From NCBI GenBank assembly GCA_043803405.1, contig JAZDKB010000004.1, positions 64,001 through 128,000 on the forward strand: a stretch of 64,000 bases of DNA. The letters run 5' to 3'. Source of the stretch: Spirochaetota bacterium (GTDB lineage: Bacteria > Spirochaetota > UBA4802 > JAFGDQ01). Of the stretch, positions 51,064 through 64,000 are shown piece by piece; the stretch's first letter is position 1; each line of letters starts with the position of its first letter. The notes under the pieces are model-generated. The model was not told where the DNA came from and searched no databases. It was given only the letters and a program-made list of their open reading frames with translations. The translations under genes were made by a program, and so were the position numbers.

Positions 51064-54000
51064 ATGTCCAAGAAAGACAACAGATACCCGCAGGAAGGCA
51101 TTGCTATTATTGGTTTGGGGTGTTATTTTCCCAAAGCCAGAGGAATTGATCAATTCTGGCAAAATGTACTAAATAAAGTTAATTGTATAACGGAAATTCC
51201 GAAGGGACGATGGGACCCGGCTGTATATTATAGCCCTGATAAAAATGCTCCTGATAAGACATATTCAAAAATCGGGGGATTTGTTGATCCTTTTGATTTC
51301 AGCATACTTGCAAAAAAGTTTAAAATTCCTCCAATGATATTAAACGCAATGGATGTTACGCAGAAGTTTGCTTTACTGGCAACAAGCGATGCTCTTGAGG
51401 ATGCCGGATACGGCAACAAGGAATTTGACAGGTCAAGAACTGCTGTCATTATCGGCAATTCGATGGGTGGCGATAAATCTGATTATTCGGATTTCAGGGT
51501 ATTCTTAAACGAAGTTGAATATAATTTAAGGAACAGCCCTGCTTTTTCCAGGATCGATCCCGCAACGCAAAATAAAATCATTGAAGAATCCGTATATAAA
51601 CTGAAATCCGGCATTTTGAATATTACCGAGGATACAATGCCCGGAGAGCTTTCCAATGTTATAGCAGGCAGAATTTCGAACGCTTTAAATCTTACGGGAC
51701 AGAGTATTACGGTGGATGCAGCCTGTGCATCTTCTTTCGCAAGCTTTCAGGAAGCGGCAAGAGGATTAAGATGCCATGACTTTGATATGGTAGTGGCTGG
51801 CGGCACTGATTATATGATGGGGCCAAGCCCGTATATTAAATTCAGCAAGATAGGAGCTCTTTCTGCGGATGGCTCAAGACCCTTCGATGCCCGAGCAAAC
51901 GGTTTTGTAATGGGAGAAGGTACCGGTATTTTTATTCTTAAAAGAGTAAGTGACGCAAGGAGAGACGGGAATAAGATATATGCGATACTTGCCGGCATTG
52001 GTGCCTCTGCAGACGGGAAAGGGAAGGGCATTACGGCTCCTAATCCCAAAGGGCAACACCTGGCGGTTTCCAGGGCTCTCGCAGAAGCAGGCTACGGTCC
52101 TGAAACGGTTCAGTATGTTGAAGCGCACGGGACTTCGACTATTGTCGGCGACCTGGCGGAAATGGAAGGACTGCTGAGTGTCTGGGAAAATAAAGGCATA
52201 AAAAATAACTCAATAGGAATCGGATCGGTAAAATCGAATATCGGCCATTTAAAAGCAGCTTCAGGTTCTGCTTCCATAATTAAACTCGCATTAGCTCTTA
52301 AGAATAAGATAATGCCCCCTTCAATAAATTACGAGACTCCGAATCCGAACATTGCCTTTGGCAGGATTCCGTTCAGAGTAATAACCGATCCAACAGAGTG
52401 GCCTAAAGGAATTGACGGCAATCCGAGAAGGGGAAATGCAAGCTCCTTTGGTTTTGGTGGTACGAATTTTCATGCAGTATTTGAAGAAGATACCGGTGAC
52501 AATGGAATGCCTGCGCCTGTAAAATATTATTCGGGTGCGGAATTAACTCAAAATGAAAGTTCTCCGGTTATAAGAGGAGTGCAAAGCTCCGCCCCGCAAA
52601 CAACGGTTTGCGATTATAGTCATAAGAGATATGAATTATCCGAAGAAAACAATAAAAAGCTGCATGGTGAAGCGATAATTATAGGCGGTTCATCATGGAA
52701 TGATATAAATGACAGACTGGCTTCTCTTAAAAAGGAAATAACCGGCAGCAGCATTACAATGCGCGATCTCTTTAAAAGATTCAATATGCAAAGCAATTCT
52801 ATGGACTACAGGCTTGGGATCGCAGCCTTTTCACTTGATGAATTTCTGGGAAAATTTAATTCGGTTCCTGAAGGATTCGAGAATATAAAACGCAGAATGG
52901 TGTTGAAAAACAAAGGCCTTTTTTACGGCGAGCATCTTCTGGAAAAAAAGAAATCCCTGGGAAAAATTTGCTTCCTGTTCCCAGGACAGGGAAACCAGTA
53001 CATAAATATGTTCAAGGATCTTTATAATAAATATAAAGTCTTTAAAGATACATTCGATGAAGCTGACCGTATAATGTATGATTTTATGGGAAAGGGAATT
53101 TCCGATCTTTTTTTCCAGAATGACGATATTTCCGGTAGCGACCTGGAAGCTGCTGAGGAAATGGTTCAGCCTACTGAAATTACCCAGCCGGCGGTATTGG
53201 CTGTAGATTATGCCATGTTCAAGCTATTGCGTAGCTTTGGGATAAATCCGGATGTTGCGGTAGGACATAGCCTTGGTGAATACGGCGCATTGATCGCTGC
53301 TGAAGTTATGAGTTTCAGGGACGCCCTGTATGCGGTTTCTGCGAGAGGCAAAGAGCTGGAGAACATAAAGTGGGATGAAATAGGAAAAATGCTGAGCGTG
53401 TCAGCTTCAACAGAAAAGGCAGAACAGCTTTTGAAAGGAATAACAGGTTATGCAATAATTGCGAATAAGAACTGCAATTCCCAGGTAGTAGTAGGCGGTG
53501 AAGGTAAGGCGGTTCTTCAGGTTATGGACAAATGCAAGGCCGAGGGCATACCTGCCCAGCTTCTCCCTGTATCGCAGGCATTCCATACCAGGGTACTGGA
53601 GCCTGCTGGCCCATCATACAGAAGAACGCTGGAAAATCTCCGGATTAATAGCCCGAAGATAGATATAGTCGCAAATCTTACAGGCGATTATTATCCAAAA
53701 GGTGAAAATGCCCGCGGAAAGATAATAGATATTCTTGTGCAGCATATATCCAATCCTGTTGAATTTATGAAATCAGTTCAAAGGATGTATTCGGACGGAG
53801 TAGATGTTTTTATCGAAGCGGGACCAAAGAGGAATCTCTCTTCATTTATTTTAAATATTCTTGATAAGCAACCCCATCTTTCGATTGCAACGAATCATCC
53901 GAAAAGAGGCGGTATAGGCGCGTTTAATGATACACTTGCTGCGATGTCGACTCACGGGTTCGATATTGACTGGAACGGCATTGATGAGAATGGAAATAGA

Positions 54001-57000
54001 ATGAATGATCCGGACTGGAGATACAGAGATAAATTTCTCGGCAAACCGGAGATAATTACAACAGCATCCGCTGTTATTGAAAAGAAAACTGAAGCTAAAG
54101 GATTTGATATGAGCAATAACGAACAGAAAAAATATCTGAATAATACTGATTACAGCAATGTTTCTATAGATAAGTTTTACGGTGATTTCCAGTCGAAGCA
54201 GAAGAAGCTTCTTGAAGACGTCATGGATATTTACTCTAAAAAGAGCGAGGAACTCCTTAATGAACAGATGAGGGATGCTCTTTATTATAAGAAGGAAGTT
54301 GAGAGGAATAAGATTAATTTTGACAGAGTAATGATCTCGGGCGTGGCAATGGGGCTTCCGGGCGAACGCTTCAAGGTATTTGATGAGCATGTCTACGACA
54401 GGTTGGCCGACGGCATTAATATGATTGATCCTGTTCCTCAGGATGTAAGGGAAAGGATAGCGGAAAAAAATATTACCCGTCTTTTAAAGAAAAGCGACGG
54501 TGAAGCTTCATTTGAAACAATAACTGATAAAGCAGATGTTGTGAAACTGTGCGGGAGAAAAGGCCAGTTTGATCTTCACGAAGAATACGGTGTTGCTAAG
54601 GAATTTATTGAAAACATTGAATCTTCCACTCAGCTTGCCATAGCTGCAACGATTGAAGCGCTTAGGGATGCAGGTATTCCGCTGGTGATGAACTACAAGC
54701 GGACATCGACAAATAAACTGCTGCCCGCGTTCTGGGGGCTTCCCGAAGACATGCAGGAAGAAACCGGGATTATTTTCGGCGCGGCATTCCCGGGTGAAAA
54801 TATGGTTGTTGAAGAATTGTCCAAAGCGCTTGCATATAAATACGGGAGTAAAACAAAAAGGGAACTGGTTAAACTTTATTCATCAATTATTGAAAAAATT
54901 AAAGATGAAAAAGTCAGGGAATTGCTTACTGAATGGTATGCAGAAAATTATTCAATATTAAAAGACGGGATAGGTGAAGAAAATCTTTATCAATTCAACA
55001 GAAAATTCATATTTAAAATTCTGGTTATGGGACACTCTCAGCTGGCGTACTTTATAAAGGCAAAAGGCCCGAACATTCACATTAATGTAGCGTGTTCTTC
55101 AACAACAGCCGGTATAGGTATTGCCGAAGACTGGATACGTACCGGAAGGGTGAAGAGGGTTATTGTAGTGGCTGCGGATGATGTTACTACTAATACGTTT
55201 CTTGAGTGGATACTGAGCGGCTTCCTTGCAGTAGGTGCAGTCAGCACTGAGGAGAAGATTGAAAATGCTGCCATACCGTTCGATAGAAGAAGAAACGGTA
55301 TGATTGTAGGCATGGGCGCAGCATGTCTTGTTGTTGAAGCTGAATCCGAGATCAGAAAAAGAGGGATGGAGCCAATAGTAGAAGTAATATCGACAGAATT
55401 CGGGAACAGCGCGTTTCACGGAACAAGGATAGATAATGTTCACATACGCAGAGTAATGGAAAGAGTTATTTCCAAAGCTGAGGACCGGTTGAATTTGAAA
55501 CGCAGCGATATTGCGAAAAAAATGCTTTTCATGTCACACGAAACTTACACACCTGCACGCGGCGGAAGCGCATCCGCAGAGATCAATGCATTAAGGAATA
55601 CTTTCCAGGACAGTTATAAAGATATTATAGTTTCAAATACAAAGGGCTTCACCGGCCATACTATGGCGGTAGGCATTGAAGATGTTGTTGCTGTAAGGGC
55701 GCTTCAGACAACAAAAGTGCCCCCGATTGCCAATCACAGAGAAGTTGATCCTGATCTTGGAATGATAAACCTAAGTAAAGGCGGGAAATATGAGCATCTT
55801 CAGTATGCTTTAAGGCTGGGGGCAGGATTTGGCTCTCAGATAGCTATGAGCGTGCTGAAGCTTGTTAGCAGAAAAGAAGACCGTATTATTAATAAGGGCG
55901 CATATTCTGAATGGCTGAAAAAGATGTCGGGGATTGAGAATCCGCAGATCGAAGTAGTAAAGAAGACTTTACGCATTAAAGACGATGGTTCTATAATGAA
56001 AAAAGACAGGGCTGCATTTGTTGAAGCTGCAGCCACTGAAACTCCTATAGATGACGATATTGCGGTGCGCTATGCCGATTCATCGGCTGCGGCGCAAAGG
56101 CAGCAGGTTGCGGCATTTCAGCCGCAGGTTTCTCCGGCAGCCGCTCCTCAGACTGCACAGGCAGATGAAGCAATTAAGCAAAAGATAATGAAGATAGTAG
56201 GCGAGAAGACGGGATATCCGGAAGACCTGATTGAGTTTGACCTGGATATGGAAAGCGATCTTGGAATAGACACTGTTAAGCAGGCAGAGATGTTCGGCGT
56301 AATCCGCGAGACATTCGGTATTGCCGCGGACGAAACTATCCGGATAAAGGATTTTCCGACTCTTAATCATGTAATCGGATTTGTGAAAACAAAGTCGCCG
56401 CAATTCGCGGGACTGGCTGCGGCCTATACGGCGCCGGCAGTTCAGACAGTATCTGCTCCGGCTGCTGCAGTCGCCGGGGCTCCTGCGGGCGCGCTTGACG
56501 GCATCAAAAAGAAAATAATGAAGATAGTAGGCGAGAAAACAGGCTATCCTGAAGACCTGATCGAGTTCGATCTTGATATGGAAAGCGATCTTGGAATAGA
56601 TACTGTTAAGCAGGCAGAGATGTTCGGCCTGATACGCGATACTTTTAATATACCTGCTGATGAGAGCATCCGGATAAAGGACTTCCCGACGCTTAACCAC
56701 GTAATCGGGTTTGTGAGATCAAAGTCGCCGCAATTCGCTGGAATGCCGGATGCTGCGTTTGCTGCGCCTTCTGTTCAGGCTCAGCCTGCTGCTATGCAAG
56801 CGCAGTCAGTATCTGCTCCGGCTGCTGCGGTCGCCGGAGCTCCTGCGGGCGTGCTTGACGACATCAGAAAAAAAGTGATGAAGATAGTAGGCGAGAAGAC
56901 AGGCTATCCGGAAGACCTGATCGAGTTTGACCTTGATATGGAAAGCGATCTTGGAATAGATACCGTTAAACAGGCAGAGATGTTCGGGCTTATCCGCGAG

Positions 57001-60000
57001 ACGTTCAATATTCCGACTGATGAGAGCATAAGGATAAAGGATTTTCCGACTCTGAACCATGTTATTGGATTTATTACGTCAAAGTCGCCGCAGTTCGCTG
57101 GAATTGCAGCGGCTGCGTTAGTTGCGCCTTCTGTTCAGGTTCAGCCTGCTGCAATACCTACACAGGCTGTAGCTGTTCCGGCTGCTGCTGTCGCCGGGGT
57201 GCCTGCTGACGGGCTTGATAATATCAGAAAGAAAATAGTTAAGATAGTTGAAGAGAAGACAGGTTACCCTGAAGACCTGATAGAGTTCGATCTTGATATG
57301 GAGAGCGATCTTGGAATAGATACTGTTAAGCAGGCAGAGATGTTCGGCCTGATACGCGAAACATTCGGTATACCTTCTGACGAGACTATCCGGATAAAAG
57401 ATTTTCCGACTCTTAATCACGTGATCGGGTTCGTAAGGACTAAGTCGCCGCAATTTGCAGGAATGGCACAGGCCGCTCCTGCAGCAGCGCCGGTTGTTCC
57501 TGCACAGCCAGCTGCTTCACCTGCGCAGGCTGTATCTGTTCCGGCTGCTGCAGTCGCCGGTGTGCCTGCGGGCGAACTGGACGACATCAGAAAAAAAATA
57601 GTAAAGATAGTTGAAGAGAAGACCGGTTACTCCGAAGACCTGATCGAATTTGATCTTGATATGGAAAGCGATCTTGGAATAGATACGGTTAAACAGGCAG
57701 AGATGTTCGGCCTGATACGTGAAAGATTTAATATTCCTGCTGACGAGACTATCCGCATAAAGGATTTCCCGACTCTTAATCATGTGATCGGGTTCGTAAA
57801 ATCAAAGTCTCCGCAATTTGCAGGAGCTGCTACTCAGACGAAACCTATTGAAGAGCAACAGACTGTAACAACAGAAGTTAAGGAGGCTGTAAAAAGCAAT
57901 ATTAAAAGAATGACTATCGAGATGCGCGAAGAGCCTCTTGATAAGAAAGGAACGCCCAGATTCAACTTTAAAGGGCTTAACATACTTATAACTGATGACG
58001 GCAAAGGCGTAGCAACTGCAATCGAAAAAACTTTGAAAGAAGCTGAAGCCAGTGTCGAGATTATCAATCAAACCGAAATGGAAGATGTTGGTAATTTAAA
58101 GAAAGCAATCGAGAGAGCAAAGAAGTCCGGAAAAATAAATGGCGTCATTCATCTGACTTCATTTGAAGAATCTAAATCTCTTGATGATATGAGCTTTGAA
58201 GACTGGAGAAAAAATATTTTCAGAAGAGTAAAATCCCTGTATTATATTTCGAAAACACTTCAGCAGGATATTAAAGAAAGCGGCAAAAATAATACTGCAT
58301 TTCTTGTGTCTGTAACGGACATGGGAGGCACATTCGGAGTTAACGATTTTACATCGAACAATCCGATTGGCGGCGGCGTGAGCGGACTTACAAAAGGACT
58401 GGATAAGGAATTTAACCAGACTAAGAAGGAAGTCCTGGTAAAGGCAATTGATTTATCTTCATTGGATAAACCGGCTGCTGCTGCGAAGACAATACTTAGC
58501 GAGATTCAGTTCGGAAGCCGGAGAGTCGAAGTTGGATATGTTGGCAGAACCAGGATGGTCCCACAGGTTATTTATAAGGACATTGATTTCAGCATAGAAC
58601 CGAGAACAGCTCTTGGCGAAGGATCGGTCTTTGTTGTCACAGGAGGCGGCTACGGCATCACAAGCGCAATTGCCAAGGATATAGCAAAAAATTTAAAGGC
58701 AAAGCTCGCGATCATTTCACTTGAGACTTTGCCTGAGAATATTACGGAGCTTGCTAATCTTGATGCGAACGGACTAAAGCAGCTTAAGGATAAAGTCGTT
58801 GCCGAACTTAAGTCGAAGAATGAGCGCGTTACTCCTGTGATGATAGACAAGGAATACAGTAAATACACGATCGCTATCGATATTTACAAAAATGTTGAGG
58901 AAATGAAAAGGCTCGGAGCGCCCGATGTTGCGTATTACAGCTGCAACGTAATGGATAACGCGGCCATGACTGATATAATCAATAAGATCAGGGAAAGATT
59001 CGGCAGGATCGATGCCGTAATACACGGCGCAGGCATAAACAAGGATAAATTCCTTGAAGATAAATCCTTTGAGGACTTTTCGCTTGTTGTAGATGTAAAG
59101 GCTGACGGGTGTTACAATATAATGGAAGCAGTAAAGAAAGACGGGGTAAAGGCTCTCGTTACTTTTGCTTCAATATCCGGACGTTTCGGGAACATCGGAC
59201 AGACGGATTATTCGTCGGCGAATGACCTGCTCAACAAATACGTGGAGCATTCGAACAGAAGATTTGCGCCGGATATGAAGGCAGTGTCCATGAACTGGAG
59301 CGGATGGCTGGGCGTCGGTATGGCAACCCGCGGAAGCATAGCCAAGATATTCGAAGAAAGCGGCGTTGACATGATCCCGATGGAAGAAGGGATAACCAAG
59401 GTAAGGGAAGAATTGCTGTATGGCAATGATGCCGAAATCATAGTGGCAGGCAGGGTAGGAGCAATAGACAGCGATAACATCATAGCAGGCGATAAAAATA
59501 ATGATTATCTGGCAGCTGTCAAACGCCTTGAATCAAAGGATCAGTTTCCTTTAATTGATGAGATAATAAACCTGAAGCCGAATCGTTCAATCGTCGTTAA
59601 AAAGAAGCTCGATACAGAAGCGGATGTTTATTTGAAAGATCACGCTATTGAAAACATACCGTATTTTCCTGCTGTTATGGGAATCGAGACATTTGCGGAA
59701 ACAGCGGTTCTTTTATTTCCGAAAAAACGCGTAAAATTAATGAAAGATATTAAGTTCAATATCCCGATTAAAATTTTTAAAGGCAAGCCGCTGGATCTTA
59801 TTACGACTGCGGAAAAAGTTAGCGAGCAGAATGGAGAGATTACACTAAAGGCCAGAATAGAAACCGAGTTCTTTAACAAAGCCGGAGTAAAGCTTGGCGA
59901 CAATAAACTGCATTTTGAGGCAGAGATTGTGCTTTCGGACAAGGGCGCTGACAAGAAAAGTTTAAAATCGGATGGAGTCGATATTGAGTTAATACAGAAA

Positions 60001-60462
60001 GCAAAAGGTAAAAAAATAATTAACGAAGAAGAGATTTATAAGAGATTCTTCCATGGTCCTAAATTTCAGGTACATGCCGGAGTAATTAAAATAAAAGAAG
60101 AAATGATATATGGTTTACTCTCTGCCAAAAATGCGAAGGGTGAAGATCATTTTACTTTTGTAAAGAAGCCGCATTTTATTGCCAATCCGATGGCTATTGA
60201 AGCAGCGTTCCAGAACGCCGGGCTTTACGCAATGACCAAAGAAAATAAAATGTCGCTTCCGGATGGAATAGATGAACTTGTATTCGTTCAGATTCCTGCA
60301 GGCGCAAAAGAGCTTTTTATGAGCGCTAAATACATTAAACATGATGATCTGAAACACGAATACGATACGGTTATACTTGACGGTCAGGGAAATGTTTATT
60401 CGGTAATGAAAGGTTACAGAATGATAAACATAGGAGACTTGAAAGAAAATGAGAAGTTTTAG
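51064..60462 (+). CDS. Iterative type I PKS/FAS, PfaA-related: KS-AT-KS-ACPx5-KR-DH
   Basis: KS1 DAAC221/EAH355/GH395; AT FPGQG, GHSLG, QAFH; KS2 VAC1344/SH1492ETY/TGH1532; five DLGIDTVKQ ACPs; KR TGGGYGI, GQTDYSSAN; DH DHAI..IPYFP, FHGP.FQ. Confidence 0.92.
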   Translation: MSKKDNRYPQEGIAIIGLGCYFPKARGIDQFWQNVLNKVNCITEIPKGRWDPAVYYSPDKNAPDKTYSKIGGFVDPFDFSILAKKFKIPPMILNAMDVTQKFALLATSDALEDAGYGNKEFDRSRTAVIIGNSMGGDKSDYSDFRVFLNEVEYNLRNSPAFSRIDPATQNKIIEESVYKLKSGILNITEDTMPGELSNVIAGRISNALNLTGQSITVDAACASSFASFQEAARGLRCHDFDMVVAGGTDYMMGPSPYIKFSKIGALSADGSRPFDARANGFVMGEGTGIFILKRVSDARRDGNKIYAILAGIGASADGKGKGITAPNPKGQHLAVSRALAEAGYGPETVQYVEAHGTSTIVGDLAEMEGLLSVWENKGIKNNSIGIGSVKSNIGHLKAASGSASIIKLALALKNKIMPPSINYETPNPNIAFGRIPFRVITDPTEWPKGIDGNPRRGNASSFGFGGTNFHAVFEEDTGDNGMPAPVKYYSGAELTQNESSPVIRGVQSSAPQTTVCDYSHKRYELSEENNKKLHGEAIIIGGSSWNDINDRLASLKKEITGSSITMRDLFKRFNMQSNSMDYRLGIAAFSLDEFLGKFNSVPEGFENIKRRMVLKNKGLFYGEHLLEKKKSLGKICFLFPGQGNQYINMFKDLYNKYKVFKDTFDEADRIMYDFMGKGISDLFFQNDDISGSDLEAAEEMVQPTEITQPAVLAVDYAMFKLLRSFGINPDVAVGHSLGEYGALIAAEVMSFRDALYAVSARGKELENIKWDEIGKMLSVSASTEKAEQLLKGITGYAIIANKNCNSQVVVGGEGKAVLQVMDKCKAEGIPAQLLPVSQAFHTRVLEPAGPSYRRTLENLRINSPKIDIVANLTGDYYPKGENARGKIIDILVQHISNPVEFMKSVQRMYSDGVDVFIEAGPKRNLSSFILNILDKQPHLSIATNHPKRGGIGAFNDTLAAMSTHGFDIDWNGIDENGNRMNDPDWRYRDKFLGKPEIITTASAVIEKKTEAKGFDMSNNEQKKYLNNTDYSNVSIDKFYGDFQSKQKKLLEDVMDIYSKKSEELLNEQMRDALYYKKEVERNKINFDRVMISGVAMGLPGERFKVFDEHVYDRLADGINMIDPVPQDVRERIAEKNITRLLKKSDGEASFETITDKADVVKLCGRKGQFDLHEEYGVAKEFIENIESSTQLAIAATIEALRDAGIPLVMNYKRTSTNKLLPAFWGLPEDMQEETGIIFGAAFPGENMVVEELSKALAYKYGSKTKRELVKLYSSIIEKIKDEKVRELLTEWYAENYSILKDGIGEENLYQFNRKFIFKILVMGHSQLAYFIKAKGPNIHINVACSSTTAGIGIAEDWIRTGRVKRVIVVAADDVTTNTFLEWILSGFLAVGAVSTEEKIENAAIPFDRRRNGMIVGMGAACLVVEAESEIRKRGMEPIVEVISTEFGNSAFHGTRIDNVHIRRVMERVISKAEDRLNLKRSDIAKKMLFMSHETYTPARGGSASAEINALRNTFQDSYKDIIVSNTKGFTGHTMAVGIEDVVAVRALQTTKVPPIANHREVDPDLGMINLSKGGKYEHLQYALRLGAGFGSQIAMSVLKLVSRKEDRIINKGAYSEWLKKMSGIENPQIEVVKKTLRIKDDGSIMKKDRAAFVEAAATETPIDDDIAVRYADSSAAAQRQQVAAFQPQVSPAAAPQTAQADEAIKQKIMKIVGEKTGYPEDLIEFDLDMESDLGIDTVKQAEMFGVIRETFGIAADETIRIKDFPTLNHVIGFVKTKSPQFAGLAAAYTAPAVQTVSAPAAAVAGAPAGALDGIKKKIMKIVGEKTGYPEDLIEFDLDMESDLGIDTVKQAEMFGLIRDTFNIPADESIRIKDFPTLNHVIGFVRSKSPQFAGMPDAAFAAPSVQAQPAAMQAQSVSAPAAAVAGAPAGVLDDIRKKVMKIVGEKTGYPEDLIEFDLDMESDLGIDTVKQAEMFGLIRETFNIPTDESIRIKDFPTLNHVIGFITSKSPQFAGIAAAALVAPSVQVQPAAIPTQAVAVPAAAVAGVPADGLDNIRKKIVKIVEEKTGYPEDLIEFDLDMESDLGIDTVKQAEMFGLIRETFGIPSDETIRIKDFPTLNHVIGFVRTKSPQFAGMAQAAPAAAPVVPAQPAASPAQAVSVPAAAVAGVPAGELDDIRKKIVKIVEEKTGYSEDLIEFDLDMESDLGIDTVKQAEMFGLIRERFNIPADETIRIKDFPTLNHVIGFVKSKSPQFAGAATQTKPIEEQQTVTTEVKEAVKSNIKRMTIEMREEPLDKKGTPRFNFKGLNILITDDGKGVATAIEKTLKEAEASVEIINQTEMEDVGNLKKAIERAKKSGKINGVIHLTSFEESKSLDDMSFEDWRKNIFRRVKSLYYISKTLQQDIKESGKNNTAFLVSVTDMGGTFGVNDFTSNNPIGGGVSGLTKGLDKEFNQTKKEVLVKAIDLSSLDKPAAAAKTILSEIQFGSRRVEVGYVGRTRMVPQVIYKDIDFSIEPRTALGEGSVFVVTGGGYGITSAIAKDIAKNLKAKLAIISLETLPENITELANLDANGLKQLKDKVVAELKSKNERVTPVMIDKEYSKYTIAIDIYKNVEEMKRLGAPDVAYYSCNVMDNAAMTDIINKIRERFGRIDAVIHGAGINKDKFLEDKSFEDFSLVVDVKADGCYNIMEAVKKDGVKALVTFASISGRFGNIGQTDYSSANDLLNKYVEHSNRRFAPDMKAVSMNWSGWLGVGMATRGSIAKIFEESGVDMIPMEEGITKVREELLYGNDAEIIVAGRVGAIDSDNIIAGDKNNDYLAAVKRLESKDQFPLIDEIINLKPNRSIVVKKKLDTEADVYLKDHAIENIPYFPAVMGIETFAETAVLLFPKKRVKLMKDIKFNIPIKIFKGKPLDLITTAEKVSEQNGEITLKARIETEFFNKAGVKLGDNKLHFEAEIVLSDKGADKKSLKSDGVDIELIQKAKGKKIINEEEIYKRFFHGPKFQVHAGVIKIKEEMIYGLLSAKNAKGEDHFTFVKKPHFIANPMAIEAAFQNAGLYAMTKENKMSLPDGIDELVFVQIPAGAKELFMSAKYIKHDDLKHEYDTVILDGQGNVYSVMKGYRMINIGDLKENEKF
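56170..57830 (+). repeat. Five tandem ACP-coding repeats with Ala/Pro-rich linkers
   Basis: Near-identical units spaced 330, 360, 360 and 363 nt apart. Confidence 0.95.
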
Positions 60463-61273
60463 GAACACATATTATGATATAAAAGAGCATCATAATCATA
60501 CACTTAAATTTCTTAATTCCAGTATCGCGTTTATCGATATCGAAAATGTCAAAAAGCGAATGAGCAAAAGAGGCGAGCATGCTTATGATGATTTTCTGAC
60601 CGATTGGGAAAATTCTTATATTAACGAACTAAAAGTTCCTAAAAGGAAAATGGATTTTCTTTGCGGAAGGCTTGCAGGCAAAAGAGCTGTCAGAAGACAT
60701 CTGATAAAAAATTCCTATGCAGGTATTGAAGATGGGAAAGAACATCCGGTTTTTAAAGACATTGAGATAAAAAGAACAGTAACCGGAAGGCCGCTTGTAT
60801 TTATTAAAGACGGATCATCTCCAAACGGCTCATCCGAGTACCATGTTTCAATTTCGCACACGGAAGGCGTTGCAGCTTCTCTTGTGTCAAATAAGATGGA
60901 TTGCAAAGGCATCGGCATAGATATTGAAAGGATAGAAGAAAGGGACACTTCGTTGTTAAATGTGGCTTTTACGGAACAGGAAATAAGTAAATTACTAAAA
61001 AATTTTTCCGGACAAAACGGAAATACAAAAATAATATTTGAGAATAATGTAGCTAAATACTGGTCAATAAAAGAAGCGGTAATGAAGTGCATGGGTGTTG
61101 GAGTAAATATTGATCTGAAGGATATCGAAATAACGGTTTCCGGCGATTATAATTCGGTAGTGAGTTTAAAGAATGAAGCTCAGAGTAGATTTGAGCTGCT
61201 AAAAGGGAGTGATTTAAAAATAGAGTCTACAAAAATTGAAAAGTTTATGATTTCCATAGCCTGTCTGTATTAG
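60449..61273 (+). CDS. Sfp-type 4'-phosphopantetheinyl transferase
   Basis: FLCGRLAGK, GRP, SISHT, GIDIE, WSIKEAVMK; overlaps the PKS stop by 14 nt. Confidence 0.88.
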   Translation: MRSFRNTYYDIKEHHNHTLKFLNSSIAFIDIENVKKRMSKRGEHAYDDFLTDWENSYINELKVPKRKMDFLCGRLAGKRAVRRHLIKNSYAGIEDGKEHPVFKDIEIKRTVTGRPLVFIKDGSSPNGSSEYHVSISHTEGVAASLVSNKMDCKGIGIDIERIEERDTSLLNVAFTEQEISKLLKNFSGQNGNTKIIFENNVAKYWSIKEAVMKCMGVGVNIDLKDIEITVSGDYNSVVSLKNEAQSRFELLKGSDLKIESTKIEKFMISIACLY

Positions 61274-61281
61274 TAGTTATT

Positions 61282-62220
61282 ATGCAAAATGAAAAGTCAA
61301 AATATATTTTAAATGACGGGCTTCTCGACGAACCGTTAATTGAATCGGAATTTAATTCCGAACTTTTGGAAGTAACAAGTTCTGCTGCTTTTAAAGCTAA
61401 TGATAAATCGGCAAGGATAATTAGCGATCATATTTACAAGTATTTCGAAAAAGTAAGCAATGATCTTTATAATGCTAACAGTTCGAAATTAATACCCGAT
61501 CTGATAAGTATTTTAATACAGGTAATGAAATCGTCAGGTATTGAAAAAGTATCGTTTCGTGTGGATATATTAGGCAATATTATCGATTTTTTTAAACATG
61601 ATGGCAAGCCGCCCAAAAAGCCAAAAAGCAAAGACAAACGCCAGGCTGTTCTCGATGCTGCGATGATTGTTTTTTCAAGAACCGGATTTCACGAAACCCA
61701 TGTAGATGAAATCGCGGAGCTGGCCGGGGTGGCGAAGGGCACGGTATATCGTTATTTCCAGAGCAAGGAAGATATTTTAAGAGAGATTATTAAAGCCAAT
61801 AACGAAGTGCTGACAAAAGATCTAATGATTATTTTCAATAAGGACGGGCATATACTTGAACTTATAAAAGAAGCTATTGAATACTATGTGGAATTTTTTG
61901 ACAGCAATAAGGATCTTTATAAAATACTTACACATGCGCCGTGGATATTGAATGATATAAGTGATCATTTTTATAAAAATATTATTTCTCATCTTAATGT
62001 TGTGAGGAGAAGAGTTTTTACTTTAACAAGAGAAGGCGTGGTTAAACCGACCGATTTTTATACTGTATTCTACGGCATTTTCGGATTTATTGACGGAGTA
62101 ATACAGAAGTGGTTCAGGCGGAACTGCGAATATTCATTAAAGGAGGAGCTATCGGTTATAATTGAAGTATTATTTTACGGATTTGTTTCGGAAGGTGAGA
62201 GAAAAGAAAAATTTATTTAA
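61282..62220 (+). CDS. TetR/AcrR regulator with an N-terminal extension of about 115 aa
   Basis: KRQAVLDAA..VF...GF..T.VDEIA..AGVAKGTVYRYF.SKE. Confidence 0.88.
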   Translation: MQNEKSKYILNDGLLDEPLIESEFNSELLEVTSSAAFKANDKSARIISDHIYKYFEKVSNDLYNANSSKLIPDLISILIQVMKSSGIEKVSFRVDILGNIIDFFKHDGKPPKKPKSKDKRQAVLDAAMIVFSRTGFHETHVDEIAELAGVAKGTVYRYFQSKEDILREIIKANNEVLTKDLMIIFNKDGHILELIKEAIEYYVEFFDSNKDLYKILTHAPWILNDISDHFYKNIISHLNVVRRRVFTLTREGVVKPTDFYTVFYGIFGFIDGVIQKWFRRNCEYSLKEELSVIIEVLFYGFVSEGERKEKFI

Positions 62221-62357: not shown

Positions 62358-64000
62358 ATGGCAAAACTAAAATACAATGACTTAATGTTCAATTTTGAAA
62401 AATGCGTACAATGGCAGGACATCGCAGACGCATTGGGCAAAGAAAACCACTTTGATGAATATATGATGACAATGAAAACAGTGGGAGACTTTGTCCAGAA
62501 CCTGGTTGAACCCTTTGCAGAAGAGATTGACAATGATGAATGCAGGGTTGAGACCGACAGTAACGGCAAAAATAAAGTAAGAATAGCCGAGCCCATGGCC
62601 AAGCATTTTGAGAAGCTGAAAGAACTGGGTCTTTTTTGCGGAGTTACAATACCTGAAGAGCAAGGCGGTTTTAATTTCCCGCTGACTGCATTTTTTGGAT
62701 TCGGCGAAGTAATTACAATGGGGGATTCAAGCCTAGGACTTACACCCATGCTTAACGAAGGATGCGCACAGGTAATCTCCGAGTATGCGAACGAAAAAAT
62801 ATGCGCGGAATATCTGCCAAAGCTTATTTCCGGAGAAAGACTTTGTGCAATGGGCTTAACCGAGCCTAGTGCCGGAAGCGACCTTGTTGCTGGAATACAG
62901 ACAACGGCAAGACCTGTTGACAAGGAAAAGGATAAAGACAAAGCTGAAAGGATAAGCGAACTTGAGAAACTGGGAGACGTTTATATTATTAACGGCACAA
63001 AGATATTCATATCAAACGGATACGGAGATGTGCTTACGCTTGCAAAAATAAATGACGGAATCAGCATGTTTTTAGTATATGAAGAAGATAAAGTAGTTCC
63101 CAGAATAGAGCACAAATTAGGCATAAGGGGCTCTGCAACATGCGAAATATTTTACGACAATTCCCCCGGAGTTTTAATCGGCGAGCTGGGCGGTGGTTTA
63201 ATACCGAACATGCTGAAGCTGATGAACATTGCAAGACTCGGAGTCGCCACTCAGGGCCTCGCGATAGGAGAAAGAGCCCACAGATACGCTATTGAGTATG
63301 CTAATGTCCGTGTTCAGTTCGGCGTTCCAATTATTCAGCATTCTCCGGTACGCCAGATAATATTTGAAAACGAGATCGAACTGCAGGCTTCGCGCGCCCT
63401 TGTTTATACCGGAGCATATTATTTTGATATGCGCCTTGCGCTAAATAAAAGATTAAAGACGCTTAAAGAAGGCACACCGGAGTATACAGAAGTAAAAAAC
63501 AAGCAGAGAAAATATTCCAGAATTGCGGAGATATTAATATCGCTTTCCAAATATGATGCAACGGAACTCGGAAATAAGGTAGCAAGCTCATCATTGCAGG
63601 TTTTCGGCGGATACGGTTTCACCAGGGAATATCCAATGGAGCGTTTCTACAGAGACGTAAGAATTACAAATATTTATGAAGGAACTACCCAGATACAGGT
63701 TGAGCAGGTATTTAACGAGACGTTCTATGTCGATAAAGTCGGACTTATCAACCAGTTCAAACTTGGCGGGAATAAAGGATTTGTCGAGAATGATAAGAAC
63801 AGAGTATTCCTTGATATCTTTCTTAATGAATATAAAAATGAAATACTCTCGAAATCTGCGGGTAATCCTGTATTGTCAGGGTTGATAAATAAAGTCGATA
63901 AAATGAGAGAATATTTAAAAGAAGCCAGACAAATACTTTTTATTGAAGAAAGAAACCGCGGAAAAGAGCTGGGCAGGAAATATAACGCGATATATCAGCA
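62358..64000 (+). CDS. Acyl-CoA dehydrogenase (runs off the window end; not in ORF track)
   Basis: RBS GGAG; AMGLTEPSAGSD, INGTKIFISNG, KLGIRGSATCE, QFG.PI, QVFGGYGF..EY..ER.YRD.RITNIYEGT. Confidence 0.93.
   Translation, partial: MAKLKYNDLMFNFEKCVQWQDIADALGKENHFDEYMMTMKTVGDFVQNLVEPFAEEIDNDECRVETDSNGKNKVRIAEPMAKHFEKLKELGLFCGVTIPEEQGGFNFPLTAFFGFGEVITMGDSSLGLTPMLNEGCAQVISEYANEKICAEYLPKLISGERLCAMGLTEPSAGSDLVAGIQTTARPVDKEKDKDKAERISELEKLGDVYIINGTKIFISNGYGDVLTLAKINDGISMFLVYEEDKVVPRIEHKLGIRGSATCEIFYDNSPGVLIGELGGGLIPNMLKLMNIARLGVATQGLAIGERAHRYAIEYANVRVQFGVPIIQHSPVRQIIFENEIELQASRALVYTGAYYFDMRLALNKRLKTLKEGTPEYTEVKNKQRKYSRIAEILISLSKYDATELGNKVASSSLQVFGGYGFTREYPMERFYRDVRITNIYEGTTQIQVEQVFNETFYVDKVGLINQFKLGGNKGFVENDKNRVFLDIFLNEYKNEILSKSAGNPVLSGLINKVDKMREYLKEARQILFIEERNRGKELGRKYNAIYQ

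Follow-up and report, generated by a model that had tools for sequence, protein, structure and literature searches.

Threonine in place of serine at the acceptor position of tandem acyl carrier domains in a PfaA-like synthase, and its probable modification by a co-encoded phosphopantetheinyl transferase

The stretch of DNA studied here, hereafter the window, is 64,000 nucleotides long (positions 64,001 to 128,000 of contig JAZDKB010000004.1 of a Spirochaetota bacterium; G000:C4:64001-128000 in our numbering) and encodes a PfaA-like megasynthase with five tandem acyl carrier protein (ACP) domains, followed by a gene for an Sfp-type phosphopantetheinyl transferase (PPTase). By its domain order and its downstream PPTase gene, this cluster is one of the uncharacterised Type R secondary lipid synthases. 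To our knowledge Ser holds the 4'-phosphopantetheine (4'-PP) arm in all carrier proteins characterised so far, whether acyl, peptidyl or aryl, and the definitions of carrier motifs, the rules of annotation and the use of Ser-to-Thr and Ser-to-Ala mutants as "nulls" all presuppose Ser. In the window the residue at this position is Thr, which leads to the question whether these domains carry an arm and, if they do, on which residue and by which enzyme it is placed there. The residue, its position, its conservation and its genomic coupling to a PPTase are established directly, and from them we infer that Thr is probably a real 4'-PP acceptor that is loaded by the co-encoded PPTase through ordinary phosphopantetheinylation.

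A sequence-only reading of the window had claimed that Thr replaces Ser in all five ACP domains, and when 56080-57900 was translated this was confirmed for each residue, codon and coordinate (Table 1). The translation contains five tandem repeats of the form EKTGY(P/S)EDLIEFDLDMESDLGIDTVKQAEMFG with the core DLGIDTVKQAE, the common reading of all five is DLDMESDLGIDTVKQAEMFG, and the repeats share 79-84% identity with each other. On the contig the Thr-motif matches are at C4:120257, 120587, 120947, 121307 and 121670. The PF00550 (PP-binding) model matched the megasynthase in five stretches with 93.2 bits against a cut-off of 20.8, and in a phmmer search against PDB chains the window Thr fell in the same column as the Ser of PigH (DLGIDS) and of bacterial ACPs (DLGADS). 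An AlphaFold2 model of the ACP, made with 34 family sequences, had a mean predicted local distance difference test (pLDDT) of 83.4, with helices at residues 2-17, 38-52 and 68-78, an additional three-residue helical turn at 62-64, and Thr38 opening helix II. When this model was searched with Foldseek the top matches were solved ACPs, the target-normalised TM scores of the top four being 0.82-0.90. The model thus predicts an ACP-type helical fold with Thr at the N-terminus of helix II. The Ser that serves as the 4'-PP acceptor and by which a carrier is recognised is absent, the residue being Thr in 5/5 window domains, and any Thr codon is one nucleotide change away from a Ser codon.

When the family was searched with the ACP region, 4742 proteins were found at E<=0.001 among 8000 scored candidates, and 119 listed homologues (P0003-P0121) were inspected. 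At the variable residue of the motif G-x-D-(x)-[VIL]-K-[QR] these proteins gave 616 T, 1 S, 3 N and 1 V, each of them having 4 to 8 domains with Thr, and the N and V matches fall outside ACPs. A scan in which the codon was left free (D-L-G-x-D-NNN-V-K-Q-A-E) was run over one genome per GTDB species and gave at least 123 loci; among the matches listed, 328 of 329 have Thr (ACC 163, ACG 132, ACT 19, ACA 14). The lone Ser (TCG; L015:4741-6489) reads DLGVDSVKQAE and lies in an AT-ACP frame of an actinobacterial metagenome-assembled genome (MAG), where the flanks are unlike those of Type R ACPs and the architecture is a different one, so that it is not a Type R synthase. The listed loci come from Acidobacteria, Actinobacteria, Chloroflexi, Elusimicrobia, Myxococcota, Gemmatimonadetes, Rhodothermales and archaea, including Heimdallarchaeota. 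Named organisms with a member of the family include Elusimicrobium posterum (P0024), Nostocoides vanveenii (P0073), Desulfoluna butyratoxydans (P0045) and, among the scanned loci, Amycolatopsis sp. (L054). The argument that the synonymous codons in the window reflect selection on Thr and not a sequencing error is borne out by these data, as Thr is family-wide and is encoded by four codons. An alternative genetic code or a sequencing error was considered separately and rejected, since the frame is open and the four Thr codons recur in independent assemblies.

In a wider search the domain profile was run against 1.84 billion cluster representatives and gave 7881 proteins at E<=1e-3, 4481 at 1e-10 and 1568 at 1e-30, Ser-type proteins included. 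In the best 150 proteins the acceptor column of 646 domains was T in 440 and S in 193; 114 of these proteins were all-Thr, 34 all-Ser and 2 mixed. The residue goes with its surroundings, Thr being followed by VKQ (427/440) and Ser by IKR or IKK. When a FastTree tree of 140 domains was built with the acceptor masked, the S/T label required 4 changes compared to 25.1 with shuffled labels. A looser pattern applied to a phylum sample of 401 genomes matched in 16 genomes, with 62 Thr (all VKQ) and 3 Ser (all IKR). Across the homologous domains the acceptor position and the DLG-x-D-T-VKQ-x-E surface are invariant. Taken from these comparisons, Thr appears to be a family character kept under selection and no local quirk, and the possibility raised by the sequence-only reading that close homologs have Ser did not hold, for the homologs carry Thr. 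As a separate observation, in P0142, P0149, P0159, P0209 and P0225 the last true ACP is followed by a degenerate ACP-like domain, in which the acceptor column has no hydroxyl residue (e.g. DLGVKD, DLGLTQ).

Thr is also found at this position in a second tandem-ACP synthase family in the window's order. Its frames are 3700-4100 aa long and its ACPs read DLGIDTVKQVEIFG, with the motif DLGIDTVKQVE, in 15 of the 16 sampled loci (Table 1); in 5/5 cases checked a PPTase is encoded 8-19 kb upstream on the same strand. The sixteenth sampled locus, G011:C70, has a PPTase of its own, and its array is of the classical Ser type, LGIDSIKRVEIL. It is here that the reading EADLGIDS, which had been claimed for PfaA-type ACPs, was found (LEADLGIDSIKRVEIL). 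The genome G011 has synthases of the two types, a PfaA with Ser and one with Thr, and a PPTase is encoded beside each of them. In two further loci, L046 (1-9555) and L058 (1-9885), a single polypeptide has the order ER(NMO)-KS-AT-KS-ACP(Thr)-KR-DH-PPTase, and L014 (1408-9594) is like them with an incomplete N-terminus. All three come from archaeal MAG contigs (Heimdallarchaeota and an unclassified archaeon), and by their domain content these fused polypeptides look like self-contained type I fatty acid synthase (FAS)-like enzymes with their own PPTase. Both residues can occur in one array: P0059 (aa 2004-2600), which has a fused PPTase, has six ACPs of which the first has Ser and the other five have Thr in the same column, and in the P0247 array this column reads S, T, T. 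These mixed arrays, together with the genome G092 described below, suggest that the PPTase accepts both residues.

The PPTase of the window had been noted in the sequence-only reading as an Sfp-type enzyme overlapping the stop of the synthase gene; its start indeed overlaps the megasynthase stop (60462) by 14 nt and the protein matches PF01648. A tblastn search with the window PPTase alone detected homologues at 19/123 listed loci, which was too insensitive, and it was replaced by an iterated hidden Markov model (HMM), by which 32 loci were found. At 62 loci the sequence extends 4.5 kb or more past the last ACP motif. A homologous PPTase is encoded 2.5-3.6 kb downstream at 29 of them, including 6 where it is fused in frame with the synthase; the fused forms include L014, L026, L046 and L058. 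The remaining 33/62 loci are mostly acidobacterial and actinobacterial. The next gene there encodes a large multidomain acetyl-CoA carboxylase (ACC; BC-BCCP-ACC_central) in 5/5 examined, and in 4/5 of the corresponding genomes a PF01648 match is present about 2.5 kb past the locus end, beyond the carboxylase.

The window PPTase carries the Mg-binding Asp/Glu and the catalytic Glu/Lys of W-x-x-K-E-x-x-x-K. All 32 aligned synthase-linked PPTases have D158, K208, E209 and K213; E160 is found in 31/32, and H137 and W205 are nearly invariant. Against structures the PPTase profile matched AcpS at 3.5e-24, over both AcpS-like halves, and Sfp at 1.7e-15, over positions 3-157; with Sfp, AcpS and the PPT domain of fungal FAS (PDB 4mrt, 1f7l, 2uv8) it has both halves, the Mg ligands and the catalytic Glu/Lys in common. 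The lineage is a distant one: among NCBIfam equivalogs HetI comes out best, with 33 bits against a cut-off of 370. What sets the lineage apart from these known enzymes is its association with Thr-ACP synthases and a presumed Thr acceptor. In a quick tree of PPTases those of the second Thr family fall in among those of Type R synthases (branch support 97), three PPTases without a link to a Thr-type synthase cluster together (support 85), and three myxobacterial fused PPTases are placed on the non-Thr-linked side with a weak support of 73. Whether Thr-ACPs co-occur with one PPTase clade had been suggested as a check. The co-occurrence stood, the PPTase being adjacent or fused, but a single Thr-linked clade did not emerge from the quick tree because the myxobacterial fused PPTases join the non-Thr-linked side. 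Position 113 is Gly in the Thr-linked enzymes and Asn in two that are apparently Ser-linked; with only three non-Thr-linked sequences this is a lead only.

Co-occurrence was then counted in 122 genomes of the window's order. The exact Thr motif was present in 10/122 genomes with 33 matches, Thr codons throughout, and the profile of the synthase-linked PPTase scored 128-154 bits in 12 genomes, with none of the others exceeding 102 bits. The synthase is also present in G108, where the ACP array is an assembly gap starting right after DKTGYPE, and in G080, where the variant motif DLGIDTVKQVE lies at a contig end. The PPTase was found in 12/12 genomes with the synthase and in 0/110 without it. Since the genomes are related to each other and the two genes mostly lie side by side, this is co-inheritance of a unit and not an independent association. 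The synthase-linked PPTase is the sole PF01648 match at E<=0.1 in G118 (98% complete) and G080 (94%), and in these two genomes the Thr-type domains are the sole matches to PF00550 (E<=0.01) and TIGR00517 (E<=1e-5). If this inventory holds, the PPTase there has only Thr-ACPs to act on. In G092 (98%) the only PPTase match is again the synthase-linked one, yet this genome encodes a nonribosomal peptide synthetase-type carrier (GGTS) and a small Ser carrier. In G118, G080 and G092 (94-98% complete) no AcpP over cut-off, no fabZ match and no fabH over cut-off were found, and the Thr-ACP megasynthases may be the sole ACP-dependent system in these bacteria and possibly their primary source of fatty acids.

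The window genome itself holds ordinary Ser carriers, and its only other PPTase is a protein of 503 aa with PS-DH-like and PPTase domains (G000:C36:90199-91707; L156:200-1708). This 503-aa PPTase is encoded outside the window, in the neighbourhood of a Ser-type ACP (C36:83987-84625) and a FabZ-like open reading frame (ORF). Many related genomes of the order, with and without the synthase, also have PPTase matches in frames of about 500-560 aa.

When the PPTase was modelled together with the ACP, coenzyme A (CoA) and Mg, the complex scored 0.61 and the best of 3 controls scored 0.02; in the benchmark of this score the mark was reached by 116/157 solved complexes and by 2/215 mismatched pairs. 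The contact agreement between runs was at least 98% and the partner pLDDT at least 79. In the model Glu209 contacts Thr38, and His137 and Thr138 contact Asp37. This pass may reflect only likeness to known complexes because PPTase-carrier complexes have already been solved.

How does this cluster compare with known systems? In Shulse & Allen 2011 (PMC3098273) the Type R secondary lipid synthase is described as one pfaA homologue with the order KS-MAT-CLF-ACP(3-6)-KR and a downstream PPTase, with Koribacter versatilis, Solibacter usitatus, Elusimicrobium minutum and Roseiflexus castenholzii as hosts and a distribution scattered over Acidobacteria, Elusimicrobia and Chloroflexi. With this description the window synthase agrees in its domain order and in the PPTase overlapping its stop, and the Type R PPTase motif hShxH (P1b') is SISHT in the window and SISHS in the consensus of the 32 linked PPTases. 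What the window and its relatives add to that description is Thr at the acceptor position, PPTases fused to the synthase, an ACC gene next to it and a wider spread. The likeness to the PfaA/PfaE polyunsaturated fatty acid (PUFA) synthases is also close, as the whole megasynthase scores 1050.3 bits with the NCBIfam PfaA model TIGR02813 (cut-off 1010.1) and shares with these enzymes the Ala/Pro-rich linkers of its tandem ACPs, the KR-DH end and a PPTase of its own. The PfaA order, KS-MAT-ACPn-KR-DH, differs from that of the window, where an extra KS/CLF stands between AT and the ACPs, and PfaA ACPs are LGIDSIKRVEIL with Ser (G011:C70 and the 34 all-Ser proteins) whereas those of the window have LGIDTVKQAE with Thr. 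No pfaB, pfaC or pfaD was found among the annotated ORFs of window 39806-64000, the remaining genome not having been searched. Enediyne polyketide synthases (PKSE; KS-AT-ACP-KR-DH-PPTase), presumably PUFA-synthase-like and iterative, with no ER and with a C-terminal PPTase, are like the fused forms L014, L026, L046 and L058; they have a single Ser-ACP and no second KS. No earlier description of a Thr acceptor was found in the full texts searched, including the accessible parts of PMC3098273, PMC3250452, PMC4882568 and PMC3340395, subscription journals and bioRxiv supplements being outside their reach, so that a prior description is possible.

The most likely explanation of these observations is that the window encodes an iterative PfaA-like synthase of Type R in which all five ACP domains are true acyl carriers and the acceptor at the N-terminus of helix II would be Thr instead of Ser, as it would be throughout the Type R family. 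The co-encoded Sfp-type PPTase would install the arm from Mg-bound CoA with Glu209 acting as the base on the side-chain hydroxyl, and KS, AT, KR and DH would then act on thioesters borne by O-phosphopantetheinyl-Thr. Why Thr should be preferred is a matter of speculation; it could insulate the pathway from other PPTases or hydrolases, or it could give a more stable linkage. Several points weigh against the modification of Thr. In E. coli ACP(S36T) there was no 4'-PP modification, and the protein could not replace acpP and was non-functional, according to PMC3340395; the substitution and its structural position are the same as here, but there it is a null and in the window family it is a conserved natural state. 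In the accessible portion of PMC3098273 the product of the Type R synthases is given as unknown, and the words threonine and serine do not appear, and in the full-text literature searched no holo-form or product was found for any member of the family. In the PPTase no residue was identified that separates Thr-linked from Ser-linked enzymes or that accommodates the Thr methyl, and the modelled docking geometry, canonical as it appears, does not address the chemistry and leaves Ser and Thr indistinguishable. The argument from the only PPTase and the only carriers was made with HMM searches of 94-98% complete assemblies, and since PF00550 at E<=0.01 missed G118's own Type R ACPs, divergent Ser carriers could be missed too.

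A narrower version of Thr loading is that the two proteins form an orthogonal pair, as the sequence-only reading had proposed, in which the PPTase is Thr-specific, other PPTases skip Thr and the pathway is insulated from housekeeping fatty-acid synthesis. This agrees with the near exclusion of Ser from the arrays although it is one mutation away, with the separate neighbouring PPTases of the two synthases in G011, with the second and different PPTase of 503 aa in the window genome and, according to PMC3340395, with the inability of E. coli to modify ACP(S36T). Strict orthogonality is nevertheless not supported because mixed Ser/Thr arrays exist, in P0059 even with a fused PPTase and also in P0247, and because G092 pairs its sole PPTase with Ser carriers, which suggests one enzyme for both residues; we regard such a pair as possible but doubtful. 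The ACP-like domains might also never be phosphopantetheinylated and might act as scaffolds or non-covalent binders, with the synthase using CoA-bound substrates or a separate carrier, and the E. coli null (PMC3340395) and the missing product and holo-form in the literature searched would be in line with this. It is made improbable by a persistently linked PPTase with invariant catalytic residues that is fused to the synthase in 6 loci, by the lack of any other carrier domain for that PPTase in the G118 and G080 searches, by the invariance of the acceptor position and of the surface around it, by the tandem multiplication of ACPs that is typical of high-flux PUFA-type synthases, and by the cluster having no separate ACP gene among its annotated genes.

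That Thr bears another prosthetic group or is directly O-acylated is more improbable still, as KS, AT, KR and DH belong to the usual types that handle thioesters, and it is a PPTase that is linked to the synthase. The Ser at position -6 from the Thr (ME-S-DLG), which had been offered as an alternative acceptor, is shared by the window and P0005, P0016 and P0039, the closest relatives, but it fails as an attachment site for the family because over 629 homologous domains the position is Ala in 95% and Ser in 4%, and in the AlphaFold2 model it is in the loop before helix II; we give it almost no weight. No other conserved Ser was found in this comparison of 629 domains, and two further conserved Thr residues (in EKTGYP and YPTL) are at ordinary structural positions away from the modelled PPTase interface. 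Hardly credible, too, is a local inactivating change that was homogenised among the repeats, or a sequencing artefact in a decaying gene. At 79-84% identity of the repeats concerted evolution within the gene is possible, but three Thr codons are used in the window, Thr is found across phyla, in archaea and in two synthase families, and the 3132-codon frame is open with all domain models matched.

The domains of the megasynthase and the neighbouring genes are given in Table 1. The claim that the catalytic domains look intact is upheld by the KS1 and AT motifs and by matches to the domain models of KS, AT, KR and DH. Inside the second KS-like domain there is a PF08545 match (Pfam) at aa 1340-1376. 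The PPTase gene is followed by that of a TetR regulator and then by that of an acyl-CoA dehydrogenase, and these two genes may belong to the synthase cluster. The TetR-family protein (61282-62220) is 312 aa long and its helix-turn-helix begins at residue 124, giving it a long N-terminal extension; the acyl-CoA dehydrogenase (62358-63998) runs past the window end.

Table 1. Features of the synthase cluster in window coordinates, followed by loci of the second Thr family and carboxylase genes in coordinates of their own contigs or loci
Feature	Position	Strand	Basis
PfaA-like Type R megasynthase, 3132 aa, KS-AT-KS/CLF-5xACP-KR-DH	51064..60462	+	ORF list, Pfam, NCBIfam
KS1, aa 11-478; motifs DAACASS, EAHGTST, KSNIGHL	51094..52497	+	PF00109, PF02801, PF16197; translation
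Acyltransferase (AT), aa 637-923; GHSLGE	52972..53832	+	PF00698; translation
Second KS-like domain, CLF position, ~aa 1090-1650; Cys retained (NVACSS)	54331..56013 (boundaries approximate)	+	Second PF00109/PF02801 stretch
ACP1, Thr1737 = ACT 56272-56274	56164..56394	+	
ACP2, Thr1847 = ACT 56602-56604	56494..56724	+	
ACP3, Thr1967 = ACC 56962-56964	56854..57084	+	
ACP4, Thr2087 = ACT 57322-57324	57214..57444	+	
ACP5, Thr2208 = ACG 57685-57687	57577..57807	+	
Ketoreductase (KR), aa 2522-2748	58627..59307	+	PF08659
PKS-type dehydratase (DH), aa 2829-3126	59548..60441	+	PF21089, PF14765
Sfp-type PPTase, 274 aa; Mg ligands D158/E160, catalytic E209, K213	60449..61273	+	PF01648, 64.9 bits (cut-off 25)
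TetR-family regulator, directly 3' of PPTase	61282..62220	+	PF00440; cluster membership from position only
Second Thr family, loci L129-L144 (examples)	G018:C57:23700-24900; G073:C1:1464800-1466650; G111:C22:19500-21250		
Acetyl-CoA carboxylase genes	L018:9822-13085; L006:10320-13727; L044:9884-13078; L079:9398-12832; L005:9660-13358		

What is new here is the natural variant with Thr at the acceptor position, the framework of carrier domains, PPTases and Type R synthases being already known. Beyond the window we incline, with some reserve, to the broader view that O-(4'-phosphopantetheinyl)-threonine is natural and widespread, and that a large PfaA-like branch, comprising Type R, the DLGIDTVKQVE family and the archaeal ER-KS-AT-KS-ACP-KR-DH-PPT forms, uses Thr with a PPTase lineage of its own; in some bacteria without an AcpP or FabZ match this would be the sole carrier system and may be the primary source of fatty acids. 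If this is true, Thr would be an additional acceptor residue for PPTases, which would also explain the weak scores of Thr-type domains against PP-binding models, and a carrier/PPTase pair that differs in cross-talk or in the stability of its linkage might become available to synthetic biology. As Type R synthases are widespread in soil Acidobacteria, Actinobacteria, Chloroflexi, Elusimicrobia and some archaea, it would also flag an uncharted lipid pathway in these organisms.

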